64,000 bases of DNA from an uncultured Actinomycetes bacterium (GCA_963730285.1 CAVSQY010000014.1:11992-75991); one strand, 5' to 3'; shown: positions 4,517-19,615, counted from the stretch's first letter. Numbers and translations: made by a program. The notes: generated by a model not told the origin, from the letters alone.

Positions 4517-4809
4517 AACGACCGAGGTTACAACCGGAGCCAGATTCGGTGGTCCGACGGCATCACGCAGGGGTGTTGAGCTGGGTCTGGGCGGTGAGTT
4601 TGGCCTCTGACCGGGGGCGGGCCGATCTGAGAATGTAGTGGGTTTGATCGGGTTTGGGCAGCGGGATCGGATTATTGGGGCCGGCGAGCGCGGGCAGCAC
4701 GTGTCAAGGTTCTGCTGAGACATTCCGAAGACATCTGGAGAGCAGAATCGAATCCGGAGTTCCTCCGGGGTGTCTCGTTGAAAGTTTGCGGTCACGTTGG
4801 GAGTAACCC

Positions 4810-5928
4810 TTGCACGTCGCCTCGGCGGAATTTAGGAGGGCACCGGCACCTCAGCGTCGGCTCATCGCCGCGTCCCTGGTGGTCGCGACCGTCGGCTTTC
4901 TGGCCGTTCTGATCCTGGTCATCCCGGAGGGGAACCCTGCCGTTGTCCTTTTGTCGGCGATCCCGGTCGCCATCGCCGGCGGCTTCTTTGGTCTGCGCTT
5001 CGTTGTCGCTTTCATGACCATCCTGGCCATCGGCACGGTGGCCGTGGTCGAGTGGGTGGGGCCCGGCTTCGGCCAGATGATCCAGACATACCGGGGCATA
5101 CCCATCGTCATGCTGATCCTGATGGGCTTGGTCGTCGGTCGGCTGCGTGACCTGTCCGATGAGATGAAGTGGCAGTTGGAGCGAAGCAAGAAAGTGGAAG
5201 CCAAGCTCCGCACCACCCAGCAGCAGCTGGAGGAGTCACTGGCGGCCAAGGACCAGCTGATTGCCTCGGTTGGCCACCAACTCCGCACCCCGCTCACCGC
5301 GGTGCTCGGGTTTGCCGAGATGCTGCAGGCCGGGAACAACACCGACATGACGCCCGTCGAGCGTGAGGAGATGGTGAGTCACATCGCCCAGCAGGCTTTC
5401 CGCATCTCCGCCGCCATCGACGACCTCCTGGTGGCAGCTCGCATCGAGATCGGGAAACTCGAAGTCACCAGGGTTCCGATCGCACTGCGAGCCCAGATCG
5501 CACAGGTCATCGAGAACTGGGATTCCGATGAGGTCGGCAACATCACGGTCAGCGGCGACGACACCCGGGCCGTAGGTGACCCCGCCCGGGTTCGACAGAT
5601 TCTGCGAAACCTGATTTCCAATGCTCTGGCCTACGGGGGCGGTGACGTGGCGGTGAGGGTCGGGACCAATTCGACTCATGCCCTCGTCGAGGTGTCCGAC
5701 AACGGGCCCGGGCTCCCTGCCGACCAATGGGAGGCGATTTTCGAGCCCTATTACCGCTATCACTCCGAGGTCAGCCAGCCCGGCTCGGTCGGGCTCGGGC
5801 TCACGGTCTCCCGGGGTCTGGCGGAGGTCATGGACGGCGACCTCCAATACCGGTACCAGGAAGGGGAGGGCACCTTCGCGTTTCGCCTTCCCCTCGCCAC
5901 CTTGAACCCGGGGCCGTTCTCCGAATAG
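4810..5928 (+). CDS. Membrane sensor histidine kinase (4 TM + HisKA + HATPase_c); no adjacent response regulator
   Basis: H-box DQLIASVGHQLRTPLTAVLGFAEML, N-box RQILRNLISNALAYGG, G-boxes DNGPGL / GLGLTVSRGLAEVMDGDL. Kinase core paralogous to 30323..31813 and 56758..58356. Confidence 0.85.
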   Translation: MHVASAEFRRAPAPQRRLIAASLVVATVGFLAVLILVIPEGNPAVVLLSAIPVAIAGGFFGLRFVVAFMTILAIGTVAVVEWVGPGFGQMIQTYRGIPIVMLILMGLVVGRLRDLSDEMKWQLERSKKVEAKLRTTQQQLEESLAAKDQLIASVGHQLRTPLTAVLGFAEMLQAGNNTDMTPVEREEMVSHIAQQAFRISAAIDDLLVAARIEIGKLEVTRVPIALRAQIAQVIENWDSDEVGNITVSGDDTRAVGDPARVRQILRNLISNALAYGGGDVAVRVGTNSTHALVEVSDNGPGLPADQWEAIFEPYYRYHSEVSQPGSVGLGLTVSRGLAEVMDGDLQYRYQEGEGTFAFRLPLATLNPGPFSE

Positions 5929-6016
5929 GTAGCGGGGCCCCTCGTTTTGAGTAGTCGGATCTTCACCTGCCGGCCTTACTTTCGGCGCTGAGCTGCGGTT
6001 CGGTCAGGGAGGCAGC

Positions 6017-6348
6017 ATGCGAATCTCATTAGGGCGGACGATGACACTCAGACGTGGGCTCACCCTGGTCGTCACGCTCATGCTCGTGGCGGCCTGTGCC
6101 GGATCCGATGGCGCAGGGTCGAACGACTCGAGCGATGCCGGAACCACCACCACGACCGGCGGCGCCGAGGCGACCACGAGGGTGACGTCGAAGCCACCTA
6201 TGACGGGATGGTCCTCATGGAGGAGACCTTCGCCCGCCACGACTACGACATGACGGCGATCCCCGAGGACGAGCTGAAGGCGCTGTCGGACCCGGAGTTG
6301 GCTGCTGCGGCTCAGCGCATCCCCGACTATTGCGGTGTGGGCGGCTGA
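6017..6348 (+). pseudogene. Putative lipoprotein with apparent frameshift (signal peptide/lipobox in one frame, conserved-looking C-terminus in another)
   Basis: Frame from 6017 (SD agggagg): MRISLGRTMTLRRGLTLVVTLMLVAACAGSDGAGSNDSSDAGTTTTTGG... runs into low-complexity text and stops at 6253. The other frame reads ...EGDVEATYDGMVLMEETFARHDYDMTAIPEDELKALSDPELAAAAQRIPDYCGVGG* ending at 6348. Both frames are open across the ACC-rich tract ~6140-6200. Confidence 0.3.
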
Positions 6349-6423
6349 CTAGCTGCAGCGCCAACTTCCTGCCGGTCTCGGGGGTATTGCTTTCTGTCTC
6401 AGGGCCCCTGTACTGTCGAACAC

Positions 6424-7761
6424 ATGTTCGATCTGCTACTCGAGACCAGTTGGGATGACGCCTATCTCGACGAATTGACCGAGGCGGCCCTGTCGGAGCC
6501 GGCTGATGCAGATGTTTCGATTCCAGCGGGACTGGCCGAGATGGCCCCAGGCCCGTTTCTCGCCGCAATCCTCTCGACCATCGACGTGACGACTCTCTCC
6601 GGCTACGACCGCGTCGTCGTGCTGCAAGCCCGGCAGCGGATGGCTTCGCACTCCGAGGCGGCCACGTATGAGGCGACGTCTGCCGTCGCCGATCACTACT
6701 TCGAGCTGGATGGCGACTTCGTGTCGGCGGATGAGGCCGCCGAGCTCGAGATCCGCGCTGCGCTGAGACTCACCCGGAGGTCCGCCAACATCCGCCTGAC
6801 CCTGGCCCACGACCTCCATCATCGGCTTCCTGCCGTTGGCCGGGCGCTGGCCGCAGGCGACATCGACGTGCCCCGTTCCCGGGTTCTCTGCCACGAGACC
6901 GGTCACCTCGACGACGACACCGCACGCCGCGTGGTCGACCTGGTCATCGATGAAGCTCCCCGATTGACCACCGGTCAGCTGGGTGCCCATCTCCGTCAGG
7001 TGTGTGTCGAGGCTGATCCCGACGACGCCAAGATCCGCTATGAAGAGGCGCTCGAGGAGCGTCGGGTGACGAGAGAGGCCACCGTTTCGGGAACCACCAA
7101 CCTGTTCCTCCTGGACGTGGAGACAGATCGGGCAGCCGAGGCCTTCAAACACATCGACCGCCTGGCCAGGAGTCTCAAGACGAAGGACCAGAAGCGTGGC
7201 ATGGACCAGATTCGCGCCGATGTCGCCCTCGATTTGCTCTGTGGTAAGCCGTCACAAGCGAGCTCAGGCAAGGGGAGCATCAACATCCGTGTTGATCTCG
7301 CCACCCTGGCGCAACTCGACGACAACCCAGCCGAATTGGGTGGGTACGGGCCGGTCATCGCAGACATCGCCCGCCAGGTCACCGAACGTCAGCAGTCCTC
7401 CCAGTGGAAGTGGACACTCACCCACCCCGACAGTGGGATGGTCCTCGACACCGGGATCACCCGGAGGCGGCCCAACGCCACGCAACAACGGTGGGTGGAA
7501 GCCGAGAACCCCACCTGCACCTTCCCCGGTTGTCGGATGCCCGCTGAGGAGTGTGACATCGACCACTTGCGGCCGTGGGCGGAAGATGGGCCGACCGCAG
7601 TCGGCAACCTGAATCCGGACTGTCGTCACGATCACGTTCAATTCACCAAACATGGCTGGAGGCATTACCGGCTGCCCGACGGCGACTACCTCTGGATCAG
7701 CCCTCTCGGCCATCGGTACACCACCAGCGGTCGCGCCCCACCGCCGGATCCGGAGGAGTGA
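6424..7761 (+). CDS. HNH endonuclease with N-terminal DUF222 domain (REP13E12-type; commonly associated with mobile DNA in actinobacteria)
   Basis: 445-aa ORF; C-terminal HNH signature CTFPGCRMPAEECDIDHLRPWAEDGPTAVGNLNPDCRHDH; N-terminal DUF222-like region (VVLQARQRMASHSEAATYEAT...RLTRRSAN). Confidence 0.8.
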   Translation: MFDLLLETSWDDAYLDELTEAALSEPADADVSIPAGLAEMAPGPFLAAILSTIDVTTLSGYDRVVVLQARQRMASHSEAATYEATSAVADHYFELDGDFVSADEAAELEIRAALRLTRRSANIRLTLAHDLHHRLPAVGRALAAGDIDVPRSRVLCHETGHLDDDTARRVVDLVIDEAPRLTTGQLGAHLRQVCVEADPDDAKIRYEEALEERRVTREATVSGTTNLFLLDVETDRAAEAFKHIDRLARSLKTKDQKRGMDQIRADVALDLLCGKPSQASSGKGSINIRVDLATLAQLDDNPAELGGYGPVIADIARQVTERQQSSQWKWTLTHPDSGMVLDTGITRRRPNATQQRWVEAENPTCTFPGCRMPAEECDIDHLRPWAEDGPTAVGNLNPDCRHDHVQFTKHGWRHYRLPDGDYLWISPLGHRYTTSGRAPPPDPEE

Positions 7762-7890
7762 GGGCGGTCCACGCCGACGACGCCGTCCTCAGAACGAGTA
7801 GTCGCTTTCGTGAGATGAGTAGCCCGACCAGTGCTTTCGAGCCATACATTCGAACGAGCCCACTCCGGGACCATCCATTCGAGATACGCG

Positions 7891-8496
7891 ATGAAACACA
7901 GATGGCCACTCGCCCTGACCATGGCCCTCCTACTTTTGACGGCTTGCGCCGGGTCCCCTGACACCGGCCCCGCCGCGACCAGCGGCGCCGCCGACACCAC
8001 CACATCGATCTCGGGATCAGACGCCTCGGTTGCCGACGATGGCGGCTCCGCAACCACGACCACGGCAGCGAATGATGACAAGTCGACGGCCGGCGACCTC
8101 GGTGCCAACAGCGCCACTATCACCCTCGACGGCACCACCTACCTCTTCCAACTGGACGAAGGTGGCACCTGTGACCCGAATTGGGTTGGCACGGGGGGCA
8201 TGCGGGCAATCCTCACCATGGTCGACGAGAACGGAGACCCGGTCGCATTCGAGCAGGACTCGACCATCACCCAAGGGGTGGACTTGTTCCTGGTCATGCC
8301 CGGTGAGGGAGCGCCCGCATCGACGATCCTCGTGGGCCTGGAGCCCGCCTGGTGGGCCAATCCGGACAGCGTCGCCGGGAGCGGCGTCGATTCCCTCAGC
8401 CTCGACTCTGGTCACGCCGAAGGCACTGCGACATTCATGACCGAGGCGGGCGACGGCCCGGCCCAGGGGACCTTCGAGGTCAACTGCGCCGGCTAA
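7891..8496 (+). CDS. Secreted lipoprotein, hypothetical (Thr/Ser/Ala-rich linker)
   Basis: Internal Met MKHRWPLALTMALLLLTACAGS gives a signal peptide + lipobox (LTAC); ORF track start 7831 is probably too early. Confidence 0.55.
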   Translation: MKHRWPLALTMALLLLTACAGSPDTGPAATSGAADTTTSISGSDASVADDGGSATTTTAANDDKSTAGDLGANSATITLDGTTYLFQLDEGGTCDPNWVGTGGMRAILTMVDENGDPVAFEQDSTITQGVDLFLVMPGEGAPASTILVGLEPAWWANPDSVAGSGVDSLSLDSGHAEGTATFMTEAGDGPAQGTFEVNCAG

Positions 8497-8657
8497 TAGG
8501 CCCGTAATCGGGGTTTTCCGGGATCCCTCTTTGAGTAGTCGGAGCCGTGGGAATGAGTAGCCGGGATCGCGCCGGTTCCCGTACGTTGCAAACAGGGGCC
8601 TGGCGACGGGAGAGCGCAGGCCCGCATGCACACACCTTTCCGGTCTGGAGGAGCGAG

Positions 8658-10481
8658 ATGAGGCGTTTGGTCCGAACTTTGGTGACGATTTGGATACTGG
8701 TTGGGATGGTCACTGCCGCCAGCGCCGCGACACCCTCAGTCACCAGAGTCAGCGAGTCGGCCGATCGAACCTTGACCGGCGGTGGGTCGGTCGGGCCCGG
8801 GACCCGGATGGCGGTTTCCGACGATGGTCGCTACGTGGCCTTCGAGTCTTCATCTTCTCTTGATTCCGGCGACACGAACAAGGTCAACGATGTCTATCTA
8901 AAGGACATGCAGACCGGGGCGCTGACCAGAGCGAGCGTCTCGTCAGGAGGGGCATTGGCAAATGGGAGCAGCGGGGGTGACACCGTCGACATCTCCAATG
9001 ACGGCCGATACGTCCTCTTCAGCTCCAATGCCTCCAACCTGGTCACCGGTGACACCAACTCCAGTGGAGACCTGTTCATCTACGACCGCCAGACGGGCAA
9101 CACGGAGAGGATCCTTCGCAGCGACAGTCTCGAGAGCATCAGTTTTGCCCGTCAGGGCTCGCTATCGGGCAACGGCAGATACGTTGCCTTCTCAGGCAGG
9201 GGATACGACGGTGCTTCAGGGTCGAACGATGCGGGGACGTTCGTCTGGGATCGGGTCTCCAAGATGACGGAGCGTGTCACCGATGGCTTCAACTTCACCG
9301 GCCTCAGTGAGACGCAGTTCGCCGCGATATCCGACGACGGTCGCTACGTCGCCTTCGTCACGCCGGAGTTCAACCACGACGGTGATGTGATCCTGTTCGA
9401 TCGCAACACCGACACCTGGGAAGTGGCCAACCCCCGCATCGGAGGAGCGGCCCCGGTTGGCTCGCAGGCCGGGCTATCCATCTCGGGCAACGGCAGATTC
9501 GTGGCCTTTGGCTCGGCCGCCACGAACTACGTGGCCGGAGACACGGCAAACACCAACGATGTGTTCGTATACGACTCCAACACGGACTCCCTGGAGCGGA
9601 TACCGGCCAACGGAAACGCCAACCGCCCCTACCCGGCGCTAAACGATGATGGCCGATACGTAACATTCACGGACTGGACCGACGTCTATGGAGCGGCCAA
9701 CGGCCGGGCCGACGTCGTCTTCTACGACCGTCAGACAGACAATGCCCAGATCCTGTCGCTCAATAGCGATGGGTCCCCGGCCGATCGCAACAGCGGTTCG
9801 TTCAGCAAGGGCGCCATCAGCGGCGATGCGCGATTCATTGCCTTCTCATCCCAATGGAATTTTGAGACGGGGACGCCGGCGGCCACCAACGTCTGGCTCA
9901 CCGATCGGGAGGGGATCACGGCTCCCCCAGGGGAATGCAATCGGTTCAGTGACGTCACTTCCTCAAATGTGTTCCAGACGTCGATCTGCTGGCTTGCCGC
10001 ACAGGGAATCACCTTGGGTTGCAATCCGCCGGCGAACACCAAGTTCTGTCCGAAAGACCCGGTGACCCGTGGTCAGATGGCGGCGTTCCTGGTGCGGGCA
10101 TTGGGGTACACCGACAATGGGGGAGGGAACCTGTTCACCGATGATGACACTTCGGTGTTTGAGAATGCCATCGACAAGTTGGGCACGGCTGGTGTCACTC
10201 TGGGTTGCAATCCGCCGGCGAACACCAAATTCTGTCCGGCCGACAAGGTGACCCGTGGTCAGATGGCGGCGTTCCTGGTGCGTGCCCTGGGGTATACCGA
10301 CAATGGGGGAGGGAACCTGTTCACCGATGATGACACTTCGGTGTTCGAGGCGGCGATCGACAGATTGGGCACGGCTGGTGTCACCAAGGGCTGTAACCCG
10401 CCGGCGAACACCAAGTTCTGCCCGAAGGACCCGGTGACCCGTGAGCAAATGGCAGCCTTCCTGAAACGGGCATTGGGCTGA
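8658..10481 (+). CDS. Secreted PD40/WD40-like beta-propeller repeat protein with three C-terminal SLH (S-layer homology)-like domains
   Basis: Start at MRRLVRTLVTIWILVGMVTAASAATPS (SD ggagg 8 nt upstream; ORF-track start 8547 is upstream of this). Repeated DDGRYVAFxS...SNLV...DTN..DVFxYD blocks x6-7 (TolB/PD40-like). Three repeats of F[ST]D(V/D).......G.T.GCNPPANTKFCP.D.VTRGQMAAFLVRALG match the SLH consensus (FxDV...W...G; F.P...VTR.Q.A.FL). Confidence 0.75.
   Translation: MRRLVRTLVTIWILVGMVTAASAATPSVTRVSESADRTLTGGGSVGPGTRMAVSDDGRYVAFESSSSLDSGDTNKVNDVYLKDMQTGALTRASVSSGGALANGSSGGDTVDISNDGRYVLFSSNASNLVTGDTNSSGDLFIYDRQTGNTERILRSDSLESISFARQGSLSGNGRYVAFSGRGYDGASGSNDAGTFVWDRVSKMTERVTDGFNFTGLSETQFAAISDDGRYVAFVTPEFNHDGDVILFDRNTDTWEVANPRIGGAAPVGSQAGLSISGNGRFVAFGSAATNYVAGDTANTNDVFVYDSNTDSLERIPANGNANRPYPALNDDGRYVTFTDWTDVYGAANGRADVVFYDRQTDNAQILSLNSDGSPADRNSGSFSKGAISGDARFIAFSSQWNFETGTPAATNVWLTDREGITAPPGECNRFSDVTSSNVFQTSICWLAAQGITLGCNPPANTKFCPKDPVTRGQMAAFLVRALGYTDNGGGNLFTDDDTSVFENAIDKLGTAGVTLGCNPPANTKFCPADKVTRGQMAAFLVRALGYTDNGGGNLFTDDDTSVFEAAIDRLGTAGVTKGCNPPANTKFCPKDPVTREQMAAFLKRALG
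9946..10481. repeat. Tandem 186-bp repeat, about 2.9 copies, encoding the SLH-like modules
   Basis: Near-identical blocks (e.g. ggggtacaccgacaatgggggagggaacctgttcaccgatgatgacacttcggtgtt at ~10100 and ~10286). The ORF-track shadow ORFs 10069..10251 and 10255..10437 are 186 nt apart with near-identical translations. Confidence 0.7.
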
Positions 10482-10525
10482 GCACAAGCGGGGAGAGACC
10501 TACCTCCTGGGCTCTCCCCGAGCGG

Positions 10526-11098
10526 CTAGGACCCGTCCTCCCGACGATGCCCGGCTGCCACTTGCTCCAGGTCGGCTTGGTCGAAGGAGTCTGGGTCGAT
10601 GTTGGCGACCCGAACGTCGGTCACGGCCTTGACCGTGGCGGTGGCGTCACCCCCCTCGAGGATGGCCCGCTCGCCGACGATCGCCCCCGGGCCTAGCTCG
10701 GCCACGACCTCACCGTCGATCTCGACCTGGAGCATCCCGTCGAGGATCAGGCACACGGCACATCCGGGTTGGCCCTGCTCGGCCAGGACCGAGCCCGGGT
10801 CGAAACTGGTCAGTTGAGGCCGTCCCGACATCACCAACTTGGACGTCTCCCGCTCGATCTGCGACTCGACACCGCTGGTCAGCGCAGGGTGTTCGAAGTC
10901 GTGCCACGGCGAATGGACGTGGTCGTTGACCTTGGTCCACTCCGTGAAGTCGATCACACCGCTCTTGGCGACAAGCTCGCCATCGGGGCCGTAGATCCAA
11001 TGGCGGGGAAACGGCGAGGCCCCCGCCAACTCGAACTTGGAGGCTCTGTCGGCGGAGATGGTCAACGCCGGAGTGGTCCAGGCCGTGGGCGCCGTCAT
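10526..11098 (-). CDS. Cyclic nucleotide-binding (cNMP) domain protein
   Basis: C-terminal half ...GCAVCLILDGMLQVEIDGEVVAELGPGAIVGERAILEGGDATATVKAVTDVRV matches the cNMP-binding beta-barrel (G.GE.AL motif). Confidence 0.65.
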   Translation of the reverse strand: MTAPTAWTTPALTISADRASKFELAGASPFPRHWIYGPDGELVAKSGVIDFTEWTKVNDHVHSPWHDFEHPALTSGVESQIERETSKLVMSGRPQLTSFDPGSVLAEQGQPGCAVCLILDGMLQVEIDGEVVAELGPGAIVGERAILEGGDATATVKAVTDVRVANIDPDSFDQADLEQVAAGHRREDGS

Positions 11099-11259
11099 CC
11101 TGATGCTCGGGCGAAAGCGAGGGCCGGCCCGTGCACAGCCAGTCCGTCACTTGATCGTGCGACCAGCCCATCTCGGAGGTCACCGTGTGGTAGGAGGCGT
11201 CGTCGTAGACCATCAGGACCATGTCGGAATGCTGGTTCCGTGAAGCACTGGCCAGATGA

Positions 11260-11892
11260 TCAGGAGTCGGGGTTGCTTCGATGTTTGCCCGGGCTCCAGC
11301 GTCCCGAGTCGTATGTCTCAGTGGCGAAGCTGAACGGCTCGTCCTCGAGATCGGTGGCCATGGTGTCGTTCCACCGGTTGAGAAAGCCGAAGAGGGAGAT
11401 GACCGCCATGATCTCCACGATCTCGCCTTCGGTGAAGTGCTCCCGCACAGCCCCGAAATGCTCCGGTGTGGCCATGCTCGGCTGGAGAGAGGCATCGCGC
11501 GCCAGCCGAAGGGCCGCCCGCTCGGCTTCGGAGTAGAGCGGGCTGGTCTCGAACTCCCACACCCTGGCGATCTTCTCGGAATCGACGCCACGCTCACGGG
11601 CGTCCACAGCTTCGTGTGCCTGGCAATACCGGCACCCGGCGGCCTGACTTGAAACGATCGCTATCAACGGCTTCAGTTCGATGGGAAGGGTGCCACTCCG
11701 CCAGATACTGGTGATCAGCTCGGAGAACGCGCGGAGGATCTCGGGTCGTCTCGCCATCGTGTAAAGGCTGTTGGGGACAAAGCTGAGGGTCTCGTCGTAA
11801 TGCCGGAAGAGCTCCTCCAGCTCGGGGAGGTCTTCACGGGGCAGCGGGTCTAGGTTTGCCACGCGTCGACCGGGCTCAGGCGAGCCGCACAT
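11260..11892 (-). CDS. Carboxymuconolactone decarboxylase (CMD/AhpD-like) family protein
   Basis: LKPLIAIVSSQAAGCRYCQAHEAVDARERGVDSEKIARVWEF – AhpD-like Cxx(H)C motif and fold-typical helices; start codon uncertain. Confidence 0.7.
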   Translation of the reverse strand: MCGSPEPGRRVANLDPLPREDLPELEELFRHYDETLSFVPNSLYTMARRPEILRAFSELITSIWRSGTLPIELKPLIAIVSSQAAGCRYCQAHEAVDARERGVDSEKIARVWEFETSPLYSEAERAALRLARDASLQPSMATPEHFGAVREHFTEGEIVEIMAVISLFGFLNRWNDTMATDLEDEPFSFATETYDSGRWSPGKHRSNPDS

Positions 11893-12147
11893 ACACCAGC
11901 AGGTTGGTTGATACCGCGGATGAAGCTGGAGCGGAGCCGTTGCGCCGGGCTTCCCACCTCGGTGTCGATCAGCCGCGGCAGCAGTTTCTCCCTAGGCCCG
12001 AGGCGGAGATACCGACCGCTTCCGAAAGAGAGTTGGTCGGCAGGGGTGGGATGGATGTCGAACAGAAAGGGGTCGGGATAGCGGTCTTCATCGAAGTTGG
12101 CCGAGATGCAGCATATCGGTGGTTGATAACGTACCCGGGTTGCGGAT

Positions 12148-13089
12148 ATGAAACAGCCACCTCGCATCGTTCTCGTTCTCAGTGAGAACTGGACCCTGAT
12201 CGACCCGAGAAACCCGCCCCAGCTTCTCGAGATGGCCCGTGTCGCCGAGGCCACGGGGATCGATACGGTGATGCTGTCCGAGCACCTTGTCCTCGGCGCC
12301 GCGGCAGGAGCCGCCGGGATAATGGGGAATCCGCGTGACTACGCGATGCCGGGCAACCAGGACCCGTCGACGCCTTGGCCGGACTCTCTCGTCCTGGCCG
12401 GGGCGATAGCAGCCGTGACCTCCAGGGTCAGGATCGCGCTGGCTGCGGTCATCGCCCCCTTGCGTCATCCTCTCCTCCTCGCCAAGCAGTTGGCAACGCT
12501 GGATCTGTTGTGTCGGGGCCGTCTCGTCGTGCAGCCGACGGTCAGCTGGCACGAAGACGAGTACGAGGCACTCGGTGTGCCATTCGGAGAGCGAGGCGCA
12601 CGCCTGGACGAGCATCTCGCGTCCTGGAGTCGGGTCTGGGCCGAATCGCCTGCCAGCTTCGCAGGGAGGCACTACCACTTCGAAGGGGTGTATCTCGAAC
12701 CGAAGCCGATGCGACCCGAAGGACCACACATGTGGATAGGTGGGAGCTCGGGACGCCTTGCCGTGATCCGACGGCTGGTCGACTACGGCAGCGGCTTCCA
12801 CCCACTGGGGCAACCAAGCGACGAAGAGCTGAGTCGGGTGCACCAGGCTCTTCGGAAAGCCGGCCGCGACCCCGAGGAATTGGAATGGGTCGGCGGTGTT
12901 CGGGGCCGATTCTCCGACGACCACTCGCCTGCAAATTTGGACGAGGCCCTGGAACAGGTTCCGGTCCAGGTGGCACGTGGCTTCGGTTCGATTTGCGTCA
13001 AGCCGTCTCAGTTCATCGATCGCATCGAAGAGCTGCCACGGTTCTGCGAACAGTTGGTGCAACGATTTGGCGAGTTGGCATCCCAATGA
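12148..13089 (+). CDS. LLM-class (luciferase-like) F420-dependent oxidoreductase
   Basis: 313-aa ORF, IVLVLSENWTLIDP...DTVMLSEHLVLG...GRLVVQPTVSWHEDEY... typical TIM-barrel LLM family. Stop overlaps the next start (ATGA at 13086-13089). Confidence 0.8.
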   Translation: MKQPPRIVLVLSENWTLIDPRNPPQLLEMARVAEATGIDTVMLSEHLVLGAAAGAAGIMGNPRDYAMPGNQDPSTPWPDSLVLAGAIAAVTSRVRIALAAVIAPLRHPLLLAKQLATLDLLCRGRLVVQPTVSWHEDEYEALGVPFGERGARLDEHLASWSRVWAESPASFAGRHYHFEGVYLEPKPMRPEGPHMWIGGSSGRLAVIRRLVDYGSGFHPLGQPSDEELSRVHQALRKAGRDPEELEWVGGVRGRFSDDHSPANLDEALEQVPVQVARGFGSICVKPSQFIDRIEELPRFCEQLVQRFGELASQ

Positions 13090-13871
13090 CGACCGAACGT
13101 GTCGCGGTCGTCACCGGTGGTGGCACCGGCATCGGCGCAGCAACAGCTTCTGTCTTGGCTCAAAGCGGAATGAATGTGATCGTCACCGGTCGACGCAGAG
13201 AGCCGATTGATGCGGTGGCCGAACGCATCGGAGGCGTGGCCATGGTGGCAGATGTCACCGAAGAGGACGACTGGGACCGGGTCATGATGTTCGCTGACAA
13301 GCGGTTCGGCGGAGTGGACGTGCTCGTGGCCAATGCCGGCATAGAGGCTTTCGGCTCGGTCGAAACGGTGACCCTCGACCAATGGCATGCCGTTCAGCAC
13401 ACCAACGTCGACGGCGTTCTGCTCGGGATCCGCGCGGTCGTCCCGGTGATGCGGCGGAGAGGCGGTGGGGCGATCGTGGTCGTCTCTTCTGTTGCCGGGC
13501 TCACCTCGGGGCCTCAGTACGCCGCCTATGTCACATCCAAGACCGCGCTCCTCGGTCTCGTTCGGTCCGCCGCCGTCGACTTGGGTCGCGATGGGATACG
13601 GGTCAACGCCATCTGCCCGGGATGGACTCGGACGGAGATGAGTGAGCGGGAGGCGGAACTGGTTGCCCGAGCAGAGGGGATCACCACAGGGGAACTGTGG
13701 GCGAGACTCGTCGCGCCGCTTCCGCTGGGCCGGGCGGCCGATCCCACGGAGATCGCGGCATGCGTCGCCTTCCTCGCCCGATCCGGGTCCTCCTTCATGA
13801 CGGGCGCCGCCGTCGTCGTCGACGGCGGGGGCTCTGCGGTCGACGTGGGAACGCTCGGCTTCAACCGATAG
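13086..13871 (+). CDS. SDR family oxidoreductase (short-chain dehydrogenase/reductase)
   Basis: MTTERVAVVTGGGTGIGAATA (TGxxxGxG), NAG motif VLVANAGI, catalytic YxxxK (YVTSKTAL). ATGA overlap with the upstream LLM gene. The ORF-track entry 12375..13871 has a spurious Arg-rich N-terminus. Confidence 0.85.
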   Translation: MTTERVAVVTGGGTGIGAATASVLAQSGMNVIVTGRRREPIDAVAERIGGVAMVADVTEEDDWDRVMMFADKRFGGVDVLVANAGIEAFGSVETVTLDQWHAVQHTNVDGVLLGIRAVVPVMRRRGGGAIVVVSSVAGLTSGPQYAAYVTSKTALLGLVRSAAVDLGRDGIRVNAICPGWTRTEMSEREAELVARAEGITTGELWARLVAPLPLGRAADPTEIAACVAFLARSGSSFMTGAAVVVDGGGSAVDVGTLGFNR

Positions 13872-13969
13872 CCTTGAGTCATCGGGTGAGGCGCGGCGGC
13901 GCGGCACTCCCGGCACACGTTCGAGGTGTGGGGTTTGGGACCGGGAGAGCAAACAACTTGAGAAAACGA

Positions 13970-14022
13970 AGTGGGCCCACGTGGACTTGAACCACGGACC
14001 TCATCCTTATCAGGGATGCGCT
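13970..14022 (-). repeat. 53-bp direct repeat = duplicate of the 3' 52 nt of tRNA-Ile (partial tRNA; att-like site)
   Basis: gtgggcccacgtggacttgaaccacggacctcatccttatcagggatgcgctc is identical to 16930-16982 (3' half of the intact tRNA-Ile), then diverges. Confidence 0.7.
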
Positions 14023-14160
14023 CACAGCCGTCATGTATGCCATCTACCAGGGCTTTCGCTCCTGCATAAGTGTCCCGTGTCACATCTGTGGCACACGCCT
14101 CAGTACCAGCGGAGTGAGTTGGAATGTGTCCAGGACGGACGTGTAGTTGACGGGGCAGGT

Positions 14161-14562
14161 TCACGCAGCCGGGGGAGACGGTGACGCTACCTCGATCCCG
14201 GCGGCGGCCGCTGCCGATCGCAGGCGATCGTCATAGACAACCATCCCCGCGAGGTCCTCGCCCAGAGTCGTCGCCGCGGCAAGGTGCAATGCATCGAGTG
14301 ATCGGAGATTTAGGGGTTCGAGCCGTCCGGCTCGGTCGAACACCTCGGCGTCGATCCGGATCACGTCGCTTTCCGCAAGAAGGCGCTCGGCCCGAGCCAT
14401 GGCGCGACCGCCGGCTCGGCCAGCAACACGCCGGAGCTCGGTTCGATGGAGGTCCGAGAGCACCCAGCGTTGGACTCCCAACCAGTGCCGTAGATGCTCG
14501 GTCTCTGCTTCGGGTCGAACGAGCTTCGCCAACGCCGACGTGTCGAGATACCAGATGACCAG
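14161..14562 (-). CDS. vapC: PIN-domain toxin VapC
   Basis: In-frame extension upstream of the track's TTG start reads (L)VIWYLDTSALAKLVRPEAETE... (PIN N-terminal D-T/S motif), later LDALHLAAA and YDDRL. No canonical ATG/GTG; start probably coupled to the antitoxin stop (TAG at 14563-14565 is in the same frame). Confidence 0.65.
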   Translation of the reverse strand: MVIWYLDTSALAKLVRPEAETEHLRHWLGVQRWVLSDLHRTELRRVAGRAGGRAMARAERLLAESDVIRIDAEVFDRAGRLEPLNLRSLDALHLAAATTLGEDLAGMVVYDDRLRSAAAAAGIEVASPSPPAA

Positions 14563-14859
14563 CTAGCGCTCCCCTTCTCGCATCTCTGCCAGGATTTCCG
14601 ACAGCGCGGGTCCCTGATCAGGTGGGATGTCGGCGTCCATTGCGGTAATAGCCTCCTCGAGAGAACGCCCCATGCCTGGTGCTATGCGTCCCTCGGCCAG
14701 CAAACTCTCATAACCCTCGGGTTGCGCAACGGGAGAGATCTTTGCCACCGGGCGACCCCGATCGGTTACCACGAAAGTCTCGCCGGCTTTGACTCTGCCC
14801 AGCCACCGACTGGCGTATCGCCGCAGCTCCCGGATCCCGATCGTGTTCATGTGCGACAT
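14563..14859 (-). CDS. vapB: Type II antitoxin, Phd/YefM-like (VapB partner)
   Basis: MSHMNTIGIRELRRYASRWLGRVKAGETFVVTDRGRPVAKISPV – classic Phd/YefM N-terminal fold signature; immediately upstream of vapC. Confidence 0.65.
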   Translation of the reverse strand: MSHMNTIGIRELRRYASRWLGRVKAGETFVVTDRGRPVAKISPVAQPEGYESLLAEGRIAPGMGRSLEEAITAMDADIPPDQGPALSEILAEMREGER

Positions 14860-15018
14860 AGTAGCACATTGGACCCGGTCGGATGAGCTCGTGTGACGGC
14901 ATCGGCGTCGAAGCCAATAGCCCAAACCTGTGCGTCACTCTGGTTTCGATAGCCCGATCCCAGGACCAAGTCGTCAAGAGTCTTTCAACGTTACGGGTGG
15001 GCTAGAGCCTTGATGACA

Positions 15019-15951
15019 TCACCACCCAGTTTGTCGGGTAAGTGTCTGGTGGTCGGTCAGTGGAGCGGTGACGTAGCTGGACGGTGTTTCAGACACTGAT
15101 GTCAGGATCTCGATCAATGCGGACGTGGCGGGTGGGTCTGGCGGATCACCGTATGTCGCGGCGTAGATGTGGCGGGCGATGCCAGTGAGCTGAGTGGTGT
15201 GGATGCCCGGCGCCCGGTGAGCTTGTAGCGCGAGCCCGTTGAGTATGGCGACGCCCATTCCTGCGGCCACCAGCGACTGGGCGATGACCGTGTCGTCGAA
15301 GGAGTGGACGATGCGCGGTGAGAAACCGGCGCCTTCGCATGCTGTGATCGTGGCGGCTCGACAGTGATCGCATCCGCCCACCCAGGCGGAGTCATGGTGG
15401 TCCTCGAGACGCTGGTGGGGTTTGTCGCTGACGAGGAAGAGAGGGTCATCCAGCAGATGGGTGAGTCGCATGCCTTCCACCTCTTCCAAGGGAATGTCGG
15501 CGTGCCGGAAGATCAAGGCGATGTCGACGTGCCCCGAACGCAGCATCTTCAAGCCCTCGGCCGGGTGGGCATCGACGAGGGTCAACTCGATTCCTGGACT
15601 GGATCTGGCCAGCTCGGTGGCTGCCTTCGTTACGAGGGTGCTGAGGACCGTTTGGAAGCCGGCGAGTCGTACCCGTCCGGCACGAAGTCCGACGTAGGCG
15701 TCCAGCTCGACAGATGCGGCGTTCAGTCGGCCCAGGATCTCTGTCGCCCGCTGCGCCAGGAGCTCCCCTTCGGGGGTGAGTCGGATGCCGCGCCCTACCC
15801 GTTGGATGAGCGTGGCTCCAGTGGCGGCCTGCAGCCGCGCCAGGTGGTGACTGACCGATGGCTGGGAGTAATGCAGCTCCTTGGCTGCTTCGGTCACCGA
15901 CCCGTGACGGGCAACCGCTTCCAACACCTTGAGATGAGTCAAGCTCAGCAT
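15019..15951 (-). CDS. LysR-family transcriptional regulator
   Basis: N-terminal HTH LTHLKVLEAVARHGSVTEAAKELHYSQPSVSHHLARLQ; LysR substrate-binding C-terminal region. Divergent from 16076..16711. Confidence 0.85.
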   Translation of the reverse strand: MLSLTHLKVLEAVARHGSVTEAAKELHYSQPSVSHHLARLQAATGATLIQRVGRGIRLTPEGELLAQRATEILGRLNAASVELDAYVGLRAGRVRLAGFQTVLSTLVTKAATELARSSPGIELTLVDAHPAEGLKMLRSGHVDIALIFRHADIPLEEVEGMRLTHLLDDPLFLVSDKPHQRLEDHHDSAWVGGCDHCRAATITACEGAGFSPRIVHSFDDTVIAQSLVAAGMGVAILNGLALQAHRAPGIHTTQLTGIARHIYAATYGDPPDPPATSALIEILTSVSETPSSYVTAPLTDHQTLTRQTGW

Positions 15952-16075
15952 GTATTGACTTTATCTATGAGTTCCTGGCTGATTTGGCATTGGACATCAT
16001 GAAACTGGGCTCCCATCATCGCTTCATCGAGGAGCTGACCCGAGGAAGTTCCACCAAACAGAAGGAACACCAGCT

Positions 16076-16711
16076 GTGTCACTTGTACGTGTCCACAACT
16101 TCGCAATTTCGCTAGACGGTTTCGGTACAGGCGAGGGTCAGAGCCACGACGCACACTTCGGTCACGCCGGCGAAAGGTTGCACGAATGGATGTTCGCCAC
16201 CCGGTGGTGGGCCCAGTCCGGTGGCACTCGCGGCGTCGACGATGCCTTCGTCCAGCAGCATGATCCGGGGATAGGAGCCGAGATCATGGGTGCGGGGAAG
16301 TTCGGCCACCCCGGATGGCATGAAGACCCGGAATGGAAGGGCGCGTGGGGTCCCAACCCGCCGTTCCACACACCGACCTTCATCCTCACTCATCACACAC
16401 GCCCGTCGATCGAGATGGAGGGCGGCACGACGTACCACTTCATCGACGCTCCGCCTACCGAGGCGCTCGAGACGGCCCGGGAGGCAGCAGGCGGCCGGGA
16501 CGTGCGCATCGGCGGTGGCCCCACCGTCATCCGCGACTTCCTTGCTGCCCGGCTCATCGACCACATGCACGTCGCGGTGGTCCCGATCCTGCTCGGCCGT
16601 GGCGTACGTCTCTGGGACGGACTTGAGGGTCTCGAGAAGGACTACGAGATCGAAGCCACCTCCTCGCCCAGCGGTGTCACGCATGTGACCTTCACCCGTG
16701 CGGGCGTCTGA
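16076..16711 (+). CDS. Dihydrofolate reductase family protein (RibD C-terminal domain-like)
   Basis: MSLVRVHNFAISLDGF...RDVRIGGGPTVIRDFLAARLIDHMHVAVVPILLG – RibD_C/DHFR-like family. Confidence 0.8.
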   Translation: MSLVRVHNFAISLDGFGTGEGQSHDAHFGHAGERLHEWMFATRWWAQSGGTRGVDDAFVQQHDPGIGAEIMGAGKFGHPGWHEDPEWKGAWGPNPPFHTPTFILTHHTRPSIEMEGGTTYHFIDAPPTEALETAREAAGGRDVRIGGGPTVIRDFLAARLIDHMHVAVVPILLGRGVRLWDGLEGLEKDYEIEATSSPSGVTHVTFTRAGV

Positions 16712-16930
16712 ACCAAGCGACGGCTTATCGCCAGGGCAACCAAAGCGCCGGCCGGACTTGTTCGCCAGGTTCCCACCAATCCCACGCCAGACCCAAAGAC
16801 AAGGCCTGCATTGCTTTCTTCGGACTCCCTCGAAGGCCGGGTCAGCCGGTGACTTCGATCGGCTGCTATATGCGATGATGCTGGGATGGGATACGAGATC
16901 ATCCCGGCGACATCTTGCGGCCTCCCAGGT

Positions 16931-17005
16931 TATTGAATTGTGGGCCCACGTGGACTTGAACCACGGACCTCATCCTTATCAGGGATGCGCTCTAACCGGG
17001 CTGAG
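16931..17005 (-). tRNA. tRNA-Ile (anticodon GAT)
   Basis: Reverse complement GGGCCCATAGCTCAGCCCGGTTAGAGCGCATCCCTGATAAGGATGAGGTCCGTGGTTCAAGTCCACGTGGGCCCA; 7-bp acceptor stem, anticodon loop CTGATAA, T-loop TTCAAGT. Confidence 0.85.
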
Positions 17006-17091
17006 CTATGGGCCCCCGACTGGTAGTCAAGGACGAGGAATTGTATTCCCATTGCCGGACTGAGTCGAAGTTGGTTCCGGGACGGGCCTGA

Positions 17092-18003
17092 TCAGGGCGT
17101 GTAGGTGAATTCGAAGTTTGCCTGCCTATCGAACTCGTCGGTGACGTGCACGACGAAGGTGGTGTCGGGCGGAGCCGTCTCGAAGAACACCTTCTTCTCC
17201 CACTGGCCGTTCGCGCCCACCTCCACGGACGTCGACCCGTACTCGGAGGTGATCTGCACCAATGAGCCGGGCTCCCCGGACCCGTAATAGACGTCGAAGG
17301 GCGGGGTCTCCGAACAAGAGCCATATGAGGCGTTGGCGCTGAACTCGGCCGGCTTCTTCTCGGTTGTGCTGGTCGTGGGCTCGGTGGTGGTGGTGGTCGT
17401 TGTCGGGATCGCGTAGTAGACGGTCACCGATGCCTCCGACTCGTTGCCTGCGACGTCCCTGGCAACGAACCGGGCGACGTTCTTTCCCTCAGCCAGCACG
17501 AGGACGATGTGCCATTCGCCCGATTTGGCGACGTCTGCCTCGTACTTGCCGGCGAAGACCCGGGCACCAGGCTCGGTCACCCCGGCGAACGTGATCTTCT
17601 TCTCGGCGAATTCGGCCCCGTTCTCGGGAGACGTGACCTCGAGAAGAGGGGGCTCGGTGTCGCGTGCCTCAGTGGTCGTAGGCGCGACCGGCACGACAAC
17701 TGCAGTGGTCGGCGGGGTCGGCTCGGTCGTGACCGCGTCGGCCTCTGTGGTCGTGGTGACGATGGTGGTGGTCGTGACAGCCGGGATGGTGGTCGTCGGA
17801 GGTGACGTGTCCATCACCAGGGCGACACCGACCGCGGAGCCGAGCATCAGCAAGGCGACCGCCCATGCCGGCCGCAGCACGAAGCCGAGCACCCGCCTGC
17901 GGGTGGTGGATCCGGGAGCCACCGATGACAACTCGGCTGTCTCTATGGCCGCCCTCAACTTGGCCGCAGCCTCGCGACCCCGGGCGTCAAGATCATTCCT
18001 CAT
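17092..18003 (-). CDS. Anti-sigma factor (single TM) with Thr/Pro-rich linker and a two-domain extracytoplasmic module
   Basis: Cytoplasmic MRNDLDARGREAAAKLRAAIETAEL, TM VLGFVLRPAWAVALLMLGSAVGVALV, then TTTTxPT linker and two domains (Ig-like; then ...YGSCSETPPFDVYYGSGEPGS...DEFDRQANFEFTYT). Start overlaps the ECF sigma stop by ~11 nt; ORF-track start 18048 is probably too early. Confidence 0.65.
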   Translation of the reverse strand: MRNDLDARGREAAAKLRAAIETAELSSVAPGSTTRRRVLGFVLRPAWAVALLMLGSAVGVALVMDTSPPTTTIPAVTTTTIVTTTTEADAVTTEPTPPTTAVVVPVAPTTTEARDTEPPLLEVTSPENGAEFAEKKITFAGVTEPGARVFAGKYEADVAKSGEWHIVLVLAEGKNVARFVARDVAGNESEASVTVYYAIPTTTTTTTEPTTSTTEKKPAEFSANASYGSCSETPPFDVYYGSGEPGSLVQITSEYGSTSVEVGANGQWEKKVFFETAPPDTTFVVHVTDEFDRQANFEFTYTP

Positions 18004-18538
18004 CGGCCACCTCCAGACCCAGCTTCTCGGCGAGAGCCCGACGCCCACGAAACAGATGCACCTTGGCCGTGGCCGGACTGCACTCGAGGATCTCGGCGAT
18101 CTCGGCCACGGGACGGTCCTCGACGTAGAAAAGCGCGATCGTCTGTGCCTGCCGGTCCGGGAGCTTTCGAACGGTCTTCCAGAACTCCTCGTCCTCCGGC
18201 TCGAGCTGGGGAAAGGGCTGGTGACGTTGCCCGGCCAGACGGGCCAGGGCCTTCGCCTCGGCCGCCTTGCGTCTAAATCCCGATATCGCCTTGTTCGCCA
18301 CGACTCGTCTCACCCATGCTCCCGGTTTGTCATACCCGCTGATCCGATCCCATCGCTGGTGGGCGGCGATGAAGGCCTCCTGTGCCAGGTCTTCGGCACC
18401 GAGACGACTACCCGAAAGGGCGTATGCCAATCCGACGACCTCCCTGAACTCCCTGCGATAGAAGCTCTCGAAAGACTCATGACTGGTGACCCGCTCCTCA
18501 TCTAGTTGTGCCGACTCGGGCTTGGTTTCTGCGGTCAC
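17993..18538 (-). CDS. ECF (sigma-70 family group IV) RNA polymerase sigma factor
   Basis: Region 2 (FESFYRREFREVVGLAYALSGSRLGAEDLAQEAFIAAHQRWDRI) and region 4 HTH (LPDRQAQTIALFYVEDRPVAEIAEILECSPATAKVHLFRGRRAL). Confidence 0.85.
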   Translation of the reverse strand: MTAETKPESAQLDEERVTSHESFESFYRREFREVVGLAYALSGSRLGAEDLAQEAFIAAHQRWDRISGYDKPGAWVRRVVANKAISGFRRKAAEAKALARLAGQRHQPFPQLEPEDEEFWKTVRKLPDRQAQTIALFYVEDRPVAEIAEILECSPATAKVHLFRGRRALAEKLGLEVADEE

Positions 18539-18565
18539 GACATCACTCGCATCGGCAGGCCCCGT

Positions 18566-18589
18566 GGTTTACCTGAGTCCTTGTAAACC
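18566..18589. promoter_or_regulatory. Inverted repeat GGTTTAC-N10-GTAAACC in the divergent region between the ECF sigma operon and the secreted paralogue gene
   Basis: Read directly: ggtttacctgagtccttgtaaacc, 28 nt upstream of the sigma start (- strand). Confidence 0.3.
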
Positions 18590-18658
18590 TCTGAGGCGGC
18601 TCATGCGTGTGACGTCGGGACGGGTTCGGGAGACGAGAGATCAATGAAGGAGTGTCAA

Positions 18659-19549
18659 ATGCGCAGATGGTTCGCATTGCTGGCAGGGGTGGCGGCGATC
18701 GCCGTGGCCGGGACCGCTCTGGCCCTCACCGGGCCCGACATGGTCAAAGACGAGAAGACCGCAACCGAAACGACCGTGAAGATCGAGGCGACCACCACCA
18801 CGTTCGAGAGACGTGTGATAGCGGAGCCTGTGGTCTCCGAAAACGTCTCCGAAATCGTGGAAAAGGACGAGGGGGCCGAGGAGGAGCCAAAGCAGTCCGA
18901 CCCGGTCGAGCAGGTCGAGCCACGTGACCACATGCCCTTCGAGATCGCCATCCTCTATCCCAAGCACGGCCAGGTCTTCGAGAAGGGCGAGGCCGTGTTC
19001 GAAGGCAGCAGCGCCCCCGGGGCCAGGGTCTACGTGGGCGACCGCCAGGCCGACGTGAACGACGACGGTGGCTGGCGCATAGTCCTCGACCTGCAGCCCG
19101 GTGAGAACCACATCACCGTGAAGGCAACGGACGAGTCCGGCAATCATGGCGCCGACTCGGTCGGCGTGACCTACAGAGCACCCGAGCCAAAGAAGGAAGA
19201 GCCCAAGAAGGAAGAGCCGAAGAAGGAAGAGCCGAAGAACGAAGAGCCCAAGAAGGAAGAGCCCAATCCAGAGCAGCCGCACGAGTGGGAGTTCTCAGCC
19301 CACCAGGTCTACGGCGAGTGCAGCGAGACCCCTCCCTTCGACGTGTTCTGGGGCACGGGCAAGCCCGGGTCCGTCATTCACGTGCAGTCCGAGTACGGCG
19401 GCGGAAGCCGTGAGGTCAACCAGAACGGAGAATGGGAGATCAAGGTGATCTTCGAGAACGCTCCCATCGGCCAGGCCTTTGCCGTCAAGGTGAGGGATGA
19501 GTTCGACCACCAGCAGATGTTCGAGTTCACCAGGATCGCAGCCGACTGA
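18659..19549 (+). CDS. Secreted protein paralogous to the extracytoplasmic two-domain module of the adjacent anti-sigma factor; contains a (E)PKKEE repeat linker
   Basis: Signal peptide MRRWFALLAGVAAIAVAGTALA (SD gaaggag 7 nt upstream of this ATG). Domain 1 ...FEKGEAVFEGSSAPGARVYVGDRQADVNDDGGWRIVLDLQPGENHITVKATDESGN vs anti-sigma ...FAEKKITFAGVTEPGARVFAGKYEADVAKSGEWHIVLVLAEGKNVARFVARDVAGN. Domain 2 YGECSETPPFDVFWGTGKPGSVIHVQSEYGGGSREVNQNGEWEIKVIFENAP...DEFDHQQMFEFT vs YGSCSETPPFDVYYGSGEPGSLVQITSEYGSTSVEVGANGQWEKKVFFETAP...DEFDRQANFEFT. Confidence 0.7.
   Translation: MRRWFALLAGVAAIAVAGTALALTGPDMVKDEKTATETTVKIEATTTTFERRVIAEPVVSENVSEIVEKDEGAEEEPKQSDPVEQVEPRDHMPFEIAILYPKHGQVFEKGEAVFEGSSAPGARVYVGDRQADVNDDGGWRIVLDLQPGENHITVKATDESGNHGADSVGVTYRAPEPKKEEPKKEEPKKEEPKNEEPKKEEPNPEQPHEWEFSAHQVYGECSETPPFDVFWGTGKPGSVIHVQSEYGGGSREVNQNGEWEIKVIFENAPIGQAFAVKVRDEFDHQQMFEFTRIAAD
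19192..19266 (+). repeat. Tandem 15-bp repeat (x5) encoding EPKKE linker
   Basis: ccaaagaaggaagagcccaagaaggaagagccgaagaaggaagagccgaagaacgaagagcccaagaaggaagagccc. Confidence 0.6.
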
Positions 19550-19615
19550 CTTCCCGACCGAGGTCCACAGCAAGGGGTCCCGGCTCTGCCGGGGCCCTCT
19601 TGCGTGTCTAGGTTG

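Follow-up and report, generated by a model that had tools for sequence, protein, structure and literature searches.

The tRNA-Ile gene (anticodon GAT) of an uncultured Actinomycetes bacterium is accompanied by a detached, exact copy of its own 3′ part, and the 2916 bp enclosed by the two copies carry four cargo genes and no integrase. This islet (positions 14024–16939) lies in a stretch of 64,000 nucleotides (GCA_963730285.1, CAVSQY010000014.1:11992–75991), which was analyzed as a whole and is referred to as the window; all coordinates are counted from its first letter. We regard it as probable that the islet is a remnant of the kind known as cis-mobilizable element (CIME)—left by a tyrosine-integrase element resembling the integrative and conjugative elements (ICEs), of a family whose target in Acidimicrobiia is the 3′ part of tRNA-Ile(GAT). 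A first-pass annotation of the window had read the two tRNA copies as the attL and attR sites of such an integration. This reading is supported by the distribution of the repeated 53-mer, by relatives that share the flanks, by integrases residing at the same tRNA, by arm signatures, and by the absence of an integrase from the islet.

The tRNA gene and its partial copy

Four features define the islet:

16940–17015, minus strand: intact tRNA-Ile gene (anticodon GAT), the integration target (ARAGORN; Rfam RF00005, 70.2 bits)
16940–16992: attL core, the 53-nt block within the intact tRNA (exact repeat)
14024–16939: islet between the two cores, 2916 bp
13971–14023: attR core, the detached exact 53-nt copy of the tRNA 3′ part (exact repeat)

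A repeat search of the window returns one exact 53-nt direct repeat, 13971–14023 and 16940–16992, with a start-to-start distance of 2969. The repeated block corresponds to tRNA positions 24–76—the 3′ strand of the D-stem, the anticodon arm, the variable loop, the T arm, the 3′ strand of the acceptor stem, the discriminator, and one further base; CCA is not encoded by this tRNA gene. Split into halves, the 53-mer yields two sub-patterns with two matches each in the 64-kb window at up to three mismatches, where 0.00 are expected from 100 shuffles, and a sensitive search of the window finds no third tRNA-Ile fragment. The identity stops on both sides of the block—position 13970 is A where 16939 is T, and 14024 is A where 16993 is T—so that the repeat does not belong to a longer segmental duplication, an alternative that the first-pass annotation had raised and that is thereby ruled out. 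The exact copy of the tRNA 3′ half described there for the far end of the islet is confirmed by the repeat search, ARAGORN, and Rfam; only its coordinates had to be moved by 1 nt (from 13970–14022) and those of the tRNA by 9–10 nt (from 16931–17005), with the rest of the description left standing.

Comparison of all islet open reading frames (ORFs) with Pfam finds no integrase, excisionase, or transfer gene in 14024–16939, nor is an ORF of the HTH_17 or another Xis-like type among the Pfam matches of the islet. Likewise, tblastn with the cognate integrase of locus L032 detects no integrase remnant in the 64-kb window (best E = 2.1)—L-numbers denoting the DNA loci compared with the window, that is, strain copies, relatives, and database contigs. 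Pfam and tblastn thus bear out that the enclosed DNA holds neither integrase nor excisionase, as first annotated.

Integrases at the same tRNA

In at least eight further species, integrase-bearing elements reside at the same tRNA-Ile. In L032 and L033, a 355-aa ORF begins 152 nt past the tRNA 3′ end, with its transcription directed away from the tRNA; its product is a tyrosine recombinase, with a match to Pfam PF00589 and N-terminal SAM-like domains. An integrase is found 153 nt past tRNA-Ile in L099, L100, and L101, the start of a similar integrase gene in L070, and an integrase pseudogene in L021, whereas more distant integrase homologs lie at most 4 kb from tRNA-Ile in L036, L073, L054, and L042. 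The integrase family comprises 2459 database proteins at E ≤ 1e-40 and includes members integrated at a tRNA-Val gene (L103 and L104).

The integrase of L101 is followed by an HTH_17 excisionase, an OLD-like TOPRIM/AAA_15 protein, SLFN_AlbA_2, and then a TraG/TrwB coupling protein (3357–13351 of that locus). The presence of the excisionase and the TraG/TrwB protein marks the integrase family as ICE-like, and, judged by its gene content, the L101 element looks like an ICE with probable defence cargo. A phage origin appears unlikely and the integrase family not phage-like, since the exact 53-mer has 0 matches in IMG/VR and the relatives of the family integrase there reach at most 33% identity.

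Degenerate tRNA fragments are present downstream of the tRNA in L021, L037, L051, and L079, and an integrase-side arm of ~100 nt, termed group G, is conserved in ~15 loci. Together, these point to repeated integration and decay at tRNA-Ile—and, hence, document an integration hotspot with a large integrase family in an uncultured actinobacterial class.

Mirror-image structures occur on the 5′ side of the tRNA in two loci. In L087 (251–5235), a 38–39-nt copy of the tRNA 5′ half 4.9 kb upstream encloses a single gene for a 1443-aa BTAD–nSTAND1–WD40 protein, and in L101 (404–2110), a copy of the tRNA 5′ half 1.6 kb upstream encloses a DUF2935 gene. No integrase lies between the tRNA 5′-half copies in either locus, and these structures may reflect a different insertion mechanism or att geometry.

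Arm signatures at the two ends of the islet

Both ends of the islet bear sequence features that recur in the integrase-bearing elements or in a second integrase-less islet, L062, from another species:

16922–16939, minus strand: stub of the integrase-side (P′) arm, AATTCAATAACCTGGGAG in tRNA sense, directly after the tRNA 3′ end (register comparison)
14024–14130: distal (attR-side, P) arm, non-coding (alignment with the L062 arm)
14077–14095, minus strand: paired GTGNCAC motif (TGTGCCACAGATGTGACAC), two palindromic heptamers 11 bp apart (pattern search)

At the tRNA-proximal end, the 18-nt stub matches the integrase-bearing loci L099, L032, L033, L021, L101, and L070 at 12–15 of its 18 positions in the same register. 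By comparison, the trailer of the detached copy agrees with those loci at 2–5 of 18 positions, and the native trailer of L027—the closest relative of the window—at 4–8 of 18. The blastn alignments of L099 and L101 extend through the tRNA to window positions 16922 and 16925, respectively, and beyond ~20 nt from the window tRNA the likeness to the integrase-side arm is gone.

At the distal end, the pattern TGTGMCACANNNGTGMCAC has one match in 64 kb, located at 14077–14095 and, thus, 54 nt inward of the detached core, with 0.00 matches expected. Among 98 loci, the strict motif occurs only in the islet copies, in the distal arm of L062, in L051, and in L032, L033, and L070; in these last three it is positioned 119–137 nt past the tRNA and ~15 nt before the integrase start. 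A relaxed search for tandem 8-mers over 768 kb places the motif upstream of every integrase examined, tRNA-Val elements included; in L032, L033, L070, and, as variants, L099–L104, the tandem 8-mers GTGNNACA-N3-GTGNNACA precede the integrase start by 15–34 nt. The same search finds variants in the arms of L021 and L037, as well as ~5 loose matches outside arms (in L016, L038, and L039, and, downstream of the integrase, at a second L099/L100 site). Within each element, the variable bases of the motif co-vary—GTGACACA twice, GTGCCACA twice, GTGCAACA twice, or GCCCCACA twice—and such co-variation within an element is the behaviour of a protein-binding site. From this sequence pattern, we infer that the paired GTGNCAC heptamers are a candidate site for the arm domain of Int, for Xis, or for a regulator, and we offer them as a candidate protein-binding site for this integrase family.

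Two further observations concern the distal arm. A peptide RKPW encoded after the motif resembles the integrase N-terminus, a resemblance that was judged coincidental. Also, the Rfam tRNA model aligns end to end at 13972–14049, i.e., with the detached 53-mer and the next 26 nt, at 28.6 bits, below the gathering score of 29. A degenerate tRNA 5′ half may thus make up the beginning of the far arm (CCCTGGTAGATGGC...), a block that is also kept in L062.

Strain copies, relatives, and flanks

The window is part of a 151-kb contig deposited in NCBI and ENA. The islet is carried at 99.7–99.9% identity by L001–L004 and L011, with assemblies of the same structure being 99.4–99.9% identical overall. L011, an independent metagenome contig from JGI, is 99.7% identical and contains the full succession of tRNA, islet, and partial copy. 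The Logan contigs L001–L010 all end in or beside the 53-nt repeat, most of them 27–30 nt into it; these breaks fit the short k-mer size with which Logan assemblies are assumed to be made and, therefore, hold no information on polymorphism.

Outside the species, a scan for exact matches with one genome per species detects the 53-mer in 83 stretches, nearly all labelled as Acidimicrobiia or Actinomycetota metagenome-assembled genomes, with some Microflora Danica bins labelled Acidobacteriota. Every match that can be judged lies within an intact tRNA-Ile, and two are cut by the locus end. Since the 53-mer elsewhere resides inside intact tRNA-Ile only, the detached copy is derived, not ancestral, and peculiar to the species of the window. 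The competing idea of an ancestral duplication, also voiced at the outset, would have such copies in other species, and the 83 representatives contain no detached exact 53-mer.

The flanks of the islet are formed by the following regions:

13086–13970, plus strand: host flank on the tRNA 3′ side, SDR gene (13086–13871) and 99-nt trailer abutting attR (Pfam adh_short)
17092–18538, minus strand: host flank on the tRNA 5′ side, Glucodextran_B-domain protein and ECF sigma factor (Pfam)

The SDR gene is part of a group of genes termed module A (10492–13970), which encodes a cNMP-binding protein, CMD, an LLM oxidoreductase, and SDR. L027 shares its flanks with the window at 82–92% nucleotide identity, including the Glucodextran_B-domain gene and a gene for a 927-aa protein on the tRNA 5′ side. 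The stretches examined of L027 and of L098, which also shares flanking genes, show no copy of any of the four islet genes. The more distant L098 carries CMD, LLM, and SDR in the same orientation downstream of tRNA-Ile, SDR being set apart from the tRNA by 5.2 kb of unrelated genes. We read the CMD–LLM–SDR genes as the probable native 3′ neighbourhood and the islet alone as the putative att-bounded insertion.

On the tRNA 5′ side, the flank of Glucodextran_B-domain protein and ECF sigma factor is syntenic with tRNA-Ile in L057 and L082. L027 has a partial Glucodextran_B gene and no sigma gene; besides the ECF sigma factor, it also lacks a 301-aa paralog (the two together at window 17786–19578), with ~1.5 kb of other DNA in this place. 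As L027 differs from the window on both the 5′ and the 3′ side, both sides of tRNA-Ile are variable between close species. The sigma gene itself is flanked by two paralogous Glucodextran_B/Big-domain proteins with similar C-terminal domains (17092–18048 and 18644–19549), one per strand, and the protein of 17092–18048, whose gene overlaps the end of the sigma gene, may be the anti-sigma factor of that sigma.

Some features of the wider surroundings were recorded along the way. L006 (Logan SRR22807978), 99.4% identical to the window, diverges from it at 11101, the start codon of the cNMP-binding gene, and bears instead a NarL-type response regulator and a truncated AAA-ATPase ORF (1–1054 of that locus). 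Right at this breakpoint lies a 35-nt tRNA-Ile-like relic (GGACCTCAT..TCAGAGATGCGCTCTAACCG), and the breakpoint may be the scar of another tRNA-linked rearrangement. The SLH-domain protein encoded at 8547–10481 ends in three tandem SLH-like repeats of ~62 aa each (9990–10480; CNPPANTKFCP...GQMAAFLVRALG). Four tRNA-Ser genes (anticodons GGA, CGA, TGA, and GCT) are grouped within 2.2 kb at 56328–58543.

Cargo of the islet

The islet encodes a putative toxin–antitoxin pair, a regulator, and an enzyme:

14161–14562, minus strand: PIN-domain (VapC-like) toxin gene (Pfam PIN, 2.1e-09, profile positions 11–118 only, for ORF 14161–14532)
14563–14859, minus strand: antitoxin of the Phd/YefM family, 98 aa (Pfam PF02604, PhdYeFM_antitox, 1.7e-09)
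15019–15951, minus strand: LysR-family regulator, 310 aa (Pfam HTH_1 and LysR_substrate)
16076–16711, plus strand: RibD_C or "dihydrofolate reductase family" protein, 211 aa (Pfam PF01872, 5.3e-13)
15103–16701: LysR–RibD_C two-gene module of Actinomycetes type (DNA identity to L105 and L107)

The LysR and RibD_C genes are divergently transcribed, and the antitoxin gene is followed by the PIN gene in the layout of a VapBC-like type II pair; the non-coding ends of the islet measure 137 nt on the distal and 228 nt on the tRNA-proximal side. Pfam thereby substantiates the cargo as first annotated—a VapBC pair and a LysR/DHFR-family pair—with the reservation that the toxin is possibly defective. 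The antitoxin is called as 98 aa on L001–L003 and L011 and as 95 aa on L004, and the gene callers give a PIN product of 79 aa only on L001–L004 and L011. The N-terminus of the PIN domain, IWYLDTSA, is conserved and lies upstream of the first ATG, GTG, or TTG (14532), in frame with the antitoxin gene and immediately behind its stop codon. The first conserved acidic residue of the domain (the Asp of YLDTSA) is hence encoded 5′ of any canonical start, and after the antitoxin stop only CTG or ATC are available, as the sequence at 14530–14565 reads TAG CTG GTC ATC TGG TAT CTC GAC in frame from this stop. This start region is the same in all strain copies. Either the PIN gene would be a pseudogene without a start codon, or a non-canonical start would be in use; the GTC after the antitoxin stop may be a mutated GTG start, and the PIN toxin may be inactive.

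The LysR–RibD_C module has its close relatives outside the class. Homologs of the islet LysR share 80–87% amino acid identity, and the named ones belong to Streptomyces, Kribbella, Actinoplanes, Plantactinospora, Virgisporangium, and Pseudonocardiaceae. The chromosome of Kribbella sp. NBC_00889 (L105) bears the same divergent LysR–RibD_C pair at 81.1% nucleotide identity over 1607 nt, and the ENA contig L107 (locus GC 0.73) is 85.5% identical to the module. The RibD_C protein falls into a 90%-identity cluster of 4880 members, the flanking genes into clusters of 1–4 members; the native LLM gene finds only ~80% amino acid identity even inside Acidimicrobiia. The nucleotide identity of 81–85% to Kribbella-type Actinomycetes indicates that the module was acquired horizontally, across classes—a regulator–reductase pair that is, thus, shown to move between actinobacterial classes. 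The GC content of the module (0.635) equals that of the host, with integrase-bearing elements at 0.61–0.63, and this match suggests a long residence in this GC range.

PADLOC assigns no defence system to the islet proteins, and BLAST of the islet against plasmids and phages gives just weak DHFR-family and tRNA matches. A RibD_C gene also stands beside int–xis in the tRNA-Val elements L103 and L104; a link to the islet RibD_C was considered and rejected, as the proteins are not similar at E < 1e-6.

Proposed origin and alternative explanations

We propose that a circular element, whose attP would have carried a 53-bp block identical to tRNA positions 24–76, recombined with the chromosomal tRNA gene. 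This integration would have left an intact tRNA with an element-derived 3′ part (attL, 16940–16992) and moved the original 3′ part of the host to the far end (attR, 13971–14023), beside the native SDR trailer. The integrase–excisionase module—located ~150 nt past the tRNA in intact relatives—and any transfer genes would have been lost later, with ~18 nt of the integrase-side arm being left after this loss. Survivors would be the RibD_C and LysR cargo, the VapBC-like pair, whose toxin is possibly dead, and the far arm in full. Both the attL and the attR core are kept, with their 53 nt identical, and the far arm retains its motif blocks. In this state, the islet cannot move on its own, and excision or co-mobilization could take place only with cognate Int/Xis supplied by a related element.

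Several results weigh against this origin. The window holds no integrase pseudogene remnant, so that the former integrase can only be inferred. The integrase-side stub is significant only if the register is fixed, as an nhmmer profile of the conserved integrase-side arm gives no significant match in the window (E = 8.6). The distal end of the integrase-bearing elements does not lie within the 10–11 kb examined, and the correspondence of their far arm to 14024–14130 is a presumed one. In GC, GC3, and tetranucleotide usage, the islet resembles the host (tetranucleotide distance at the 35th percentile), and the comparison of GC and codon usage with the flanks that the first-pass annotation had suggested brings out nothing distinctive. 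L027 lacks 6.4 kb (10492–16939, that is, module A, the partial tRNA copy, and the islet), not the 2.9 kb alone. In the comparison with relatives for an empty tRNA-Ile site, suggested at the same time, the stretches examined of L027 and L098 show no islet genes, but the exact empty site—the SDR trailer followed directly by an intact tRNA—is not seen among the relatives compared. Two metagenome scans, of a collection evidently without the sample of L011, give 0 matches each for the junctions of left flank and att and of islet left end and att, and reveal neither an excised circle nor another insertion context.

The absence of 6.4 kb from L027 bears on the extent of the insertion. The true insertion might be the whole of 10492–16939, made up of two islands in tandem: the 53-mer at 13971–14023 would be an internal att, and module A the older island, whose outer att would have decayed; we hold this to be doubtful, though worth keeping in mind, and it is compatible with the origin of the islet as a CIME-type remnant. 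In L027, 69 nt separate the end of the SLH-domain gene (window 8547–10481) from the tRNA 3′ end; homology to the window breaks at 10491 and resumes at 16940. An SLH-like gene also ends ~57 nt from the tRNA in L024, and SLH-like matches lie within ~0.7 kb of it in L071; these matches, however, cover the repeated SLH region only and may be paralogs. The divergence of L006 left of 11101, with its 35-nt tRNA-Ile-like relic at the break, would fit an older island as well, as would the LLM homologs, which are nearly as close in Egicoccus, a different class (75%), as in the best Acidimicrobiia (80%), and tandem accretion has been described for tRNA genes (PMC2440964, PMC5704250). On the contrary, the window contains no third tRNA fragment, the space from the SLH terminator to the cNMP gene could not accommodate one, and the CMD, LLM, and SDR genes of L098, downstream of tRNA-Ile in the same orientation, look native.

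A different reading of the islet itself is brought up by L062. There, a partial copy of tRNA-Ile lies 6.7 kb downstream of the intact tRNA (locus 1–6755); at least 25 nt of it are visible, as the locus starts inside the copy, and it departs from the 53-mer at position 52. The copies enclose no integrase and a single gene, whose 1875-aa product combines Trans_reg_C (OmpR), BTAD, Ser/Thr protein kinase, nSTAND1, and beta-propeller domains. The distal arms of L062 and the window share CATCTRCCWGGG at +17, an identical 19-mer, GTGTCACATCTGTGGCACA, at +54 from the core, and GGAATGTGKCCA near +100. The tRNA-proximal arm of L062 agrees with the integrase-side arm at 9 of 18 positions ungapped, and better with a 1-nt indel, as judged by eye. 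These two islets—two cases only—could mean parallel decay or a class of non-autonomous elements. The first-pass annotation had likewise left a decayed island and a satellite mobilized in trans side by side.

In the latter case, the islet would be a defined non-autonomous cassette of arm stub, cargo, and ~105-nt far arm, inserted and excised with Int/Xis that the related ICE-like family supplies in trans, and not the outcome of a chance deletion; we consider this unlikely. The same low probability is given to the wider proposal that Acidimicrobiia harbour cassette islets of fixed architecture—tRNA-Ile core, stub of at most ~20 nt, swappable cargo, and ~105-nt far arm with paired GTGNCAC—and that a co-resident ICE-like family, which has the same co-varying site upstream of its own integrase, shuttles them in trans with its Int/Xis. 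Such cassettes would account for the recurrence of the design in another species with the shared 19-mer and two further blocks, for the contrast in cargo (LysR–RibD_C–VapBC in the window versus the single BTAD–kinase–nSTAND1 protein in L062), for an L062 tRNA-proximal trailer that is at most weakly like the integrase-side arm, and for two window cores that are still identical. However, just two cases are at hand, the 64-kb window contains no cognate integrase, and neither a circular junction nor another insertion site is found in IMG/VR and the metagenome scans. Moreover, most of the integrase-side arm, conserved over ~100 nt in integrase-bearing elements, is gone, which may abolish recombination, and decay to CIMEs is a documented route (PMC5704250). 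If trans-mobilization were true, the islets would be a simple model of helper-dependent gene capture at a tRNA hotspot, not mere debris.

Finally, a repeat unrelated to site-specific recombination—a tRNA duplication by chance or replication error, or one left behind when incoming DNA recombined homologously or illegitimately—would agree with the missing integrase and the host-like composition of the islet, but is highly improbable in view of a repeat that ends exactly at the tRNA 3′ end with no identity into either flank, of integrase-bearing elements at the same tRNA in at least eight other species, of family-specific arm signatures at both islet ends, and of the foreign cargo.

Comparison with known systems

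Phage satellites such as the phage-inducible chromosomal islands (PICIs) or P4-like elements are small, helper-dependent, and often located beside tRNA genes, and in these respects resemble the islet. They encode, however, their own integrase, replication, and helper-hijacking functions, none of which is present here. Small tRNA-linked or decayed islands are closer in appearance, as they show a tRNA 3′ direct repeat, a toxin–antitoxin module, a cargo of regulator and enzyme, and absence from relatives; yet most of the annotated ones keep at least an integrase pseudogene and deviate in composition, and the islet does neither.

Elements of actinomycetes use att identity segments at tRNA 3′ ends (PMC2440964). 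With actinomycete ICEs (AICEs) such as pSAM2, SLP1, and pMEA300, the proposed parent element would have in common the tyrosine integrase and a short att identity that overlaps the tRNA 3′ end and restores the tRNA; tandem integration of AICEs leaves an internal att copy, and remnants are common (PMC2440964). The islet differs from them by lacking int, xis, rep, and tra modules, and the related intact element L101 bears a coupling protein of the TraG/TrwB type, which points to an ICE of the type IV secretion system (T4SS) type instead of a classical FtsK-like AICE.

The closest counterpart appears to be the CIME, defined as an element that no longer has its genes for integration and transfer and has kept attL and attR (PMC5704250). 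The CIMEs of the ICESt1/ICESt3 family of Streptococcus thermophilus lie, like the islet, at the 3′ end of a gene targeted by related ICE-type elements, and are thought to be decay products that become mobilizable only once a related element integrates alongside (PMC5704250). On the other side, the islet belongs to Acidimicrobiia—a different phylum, known here from metagenome-assembled genomes only—and uses tRNA-Ile as target; no functional partner ICE has come to light in its genome, the larger part of the integrase-side arm is missing, and mobilization is hypothetical. Read in this way, the islet would be a further case of a known remnant type and a routine example of how tRNA genes keep foreign DNA after the delivering element has decayed, with the recurrent far arm and the paired GTGNCAC site being the only leads that are worth following.

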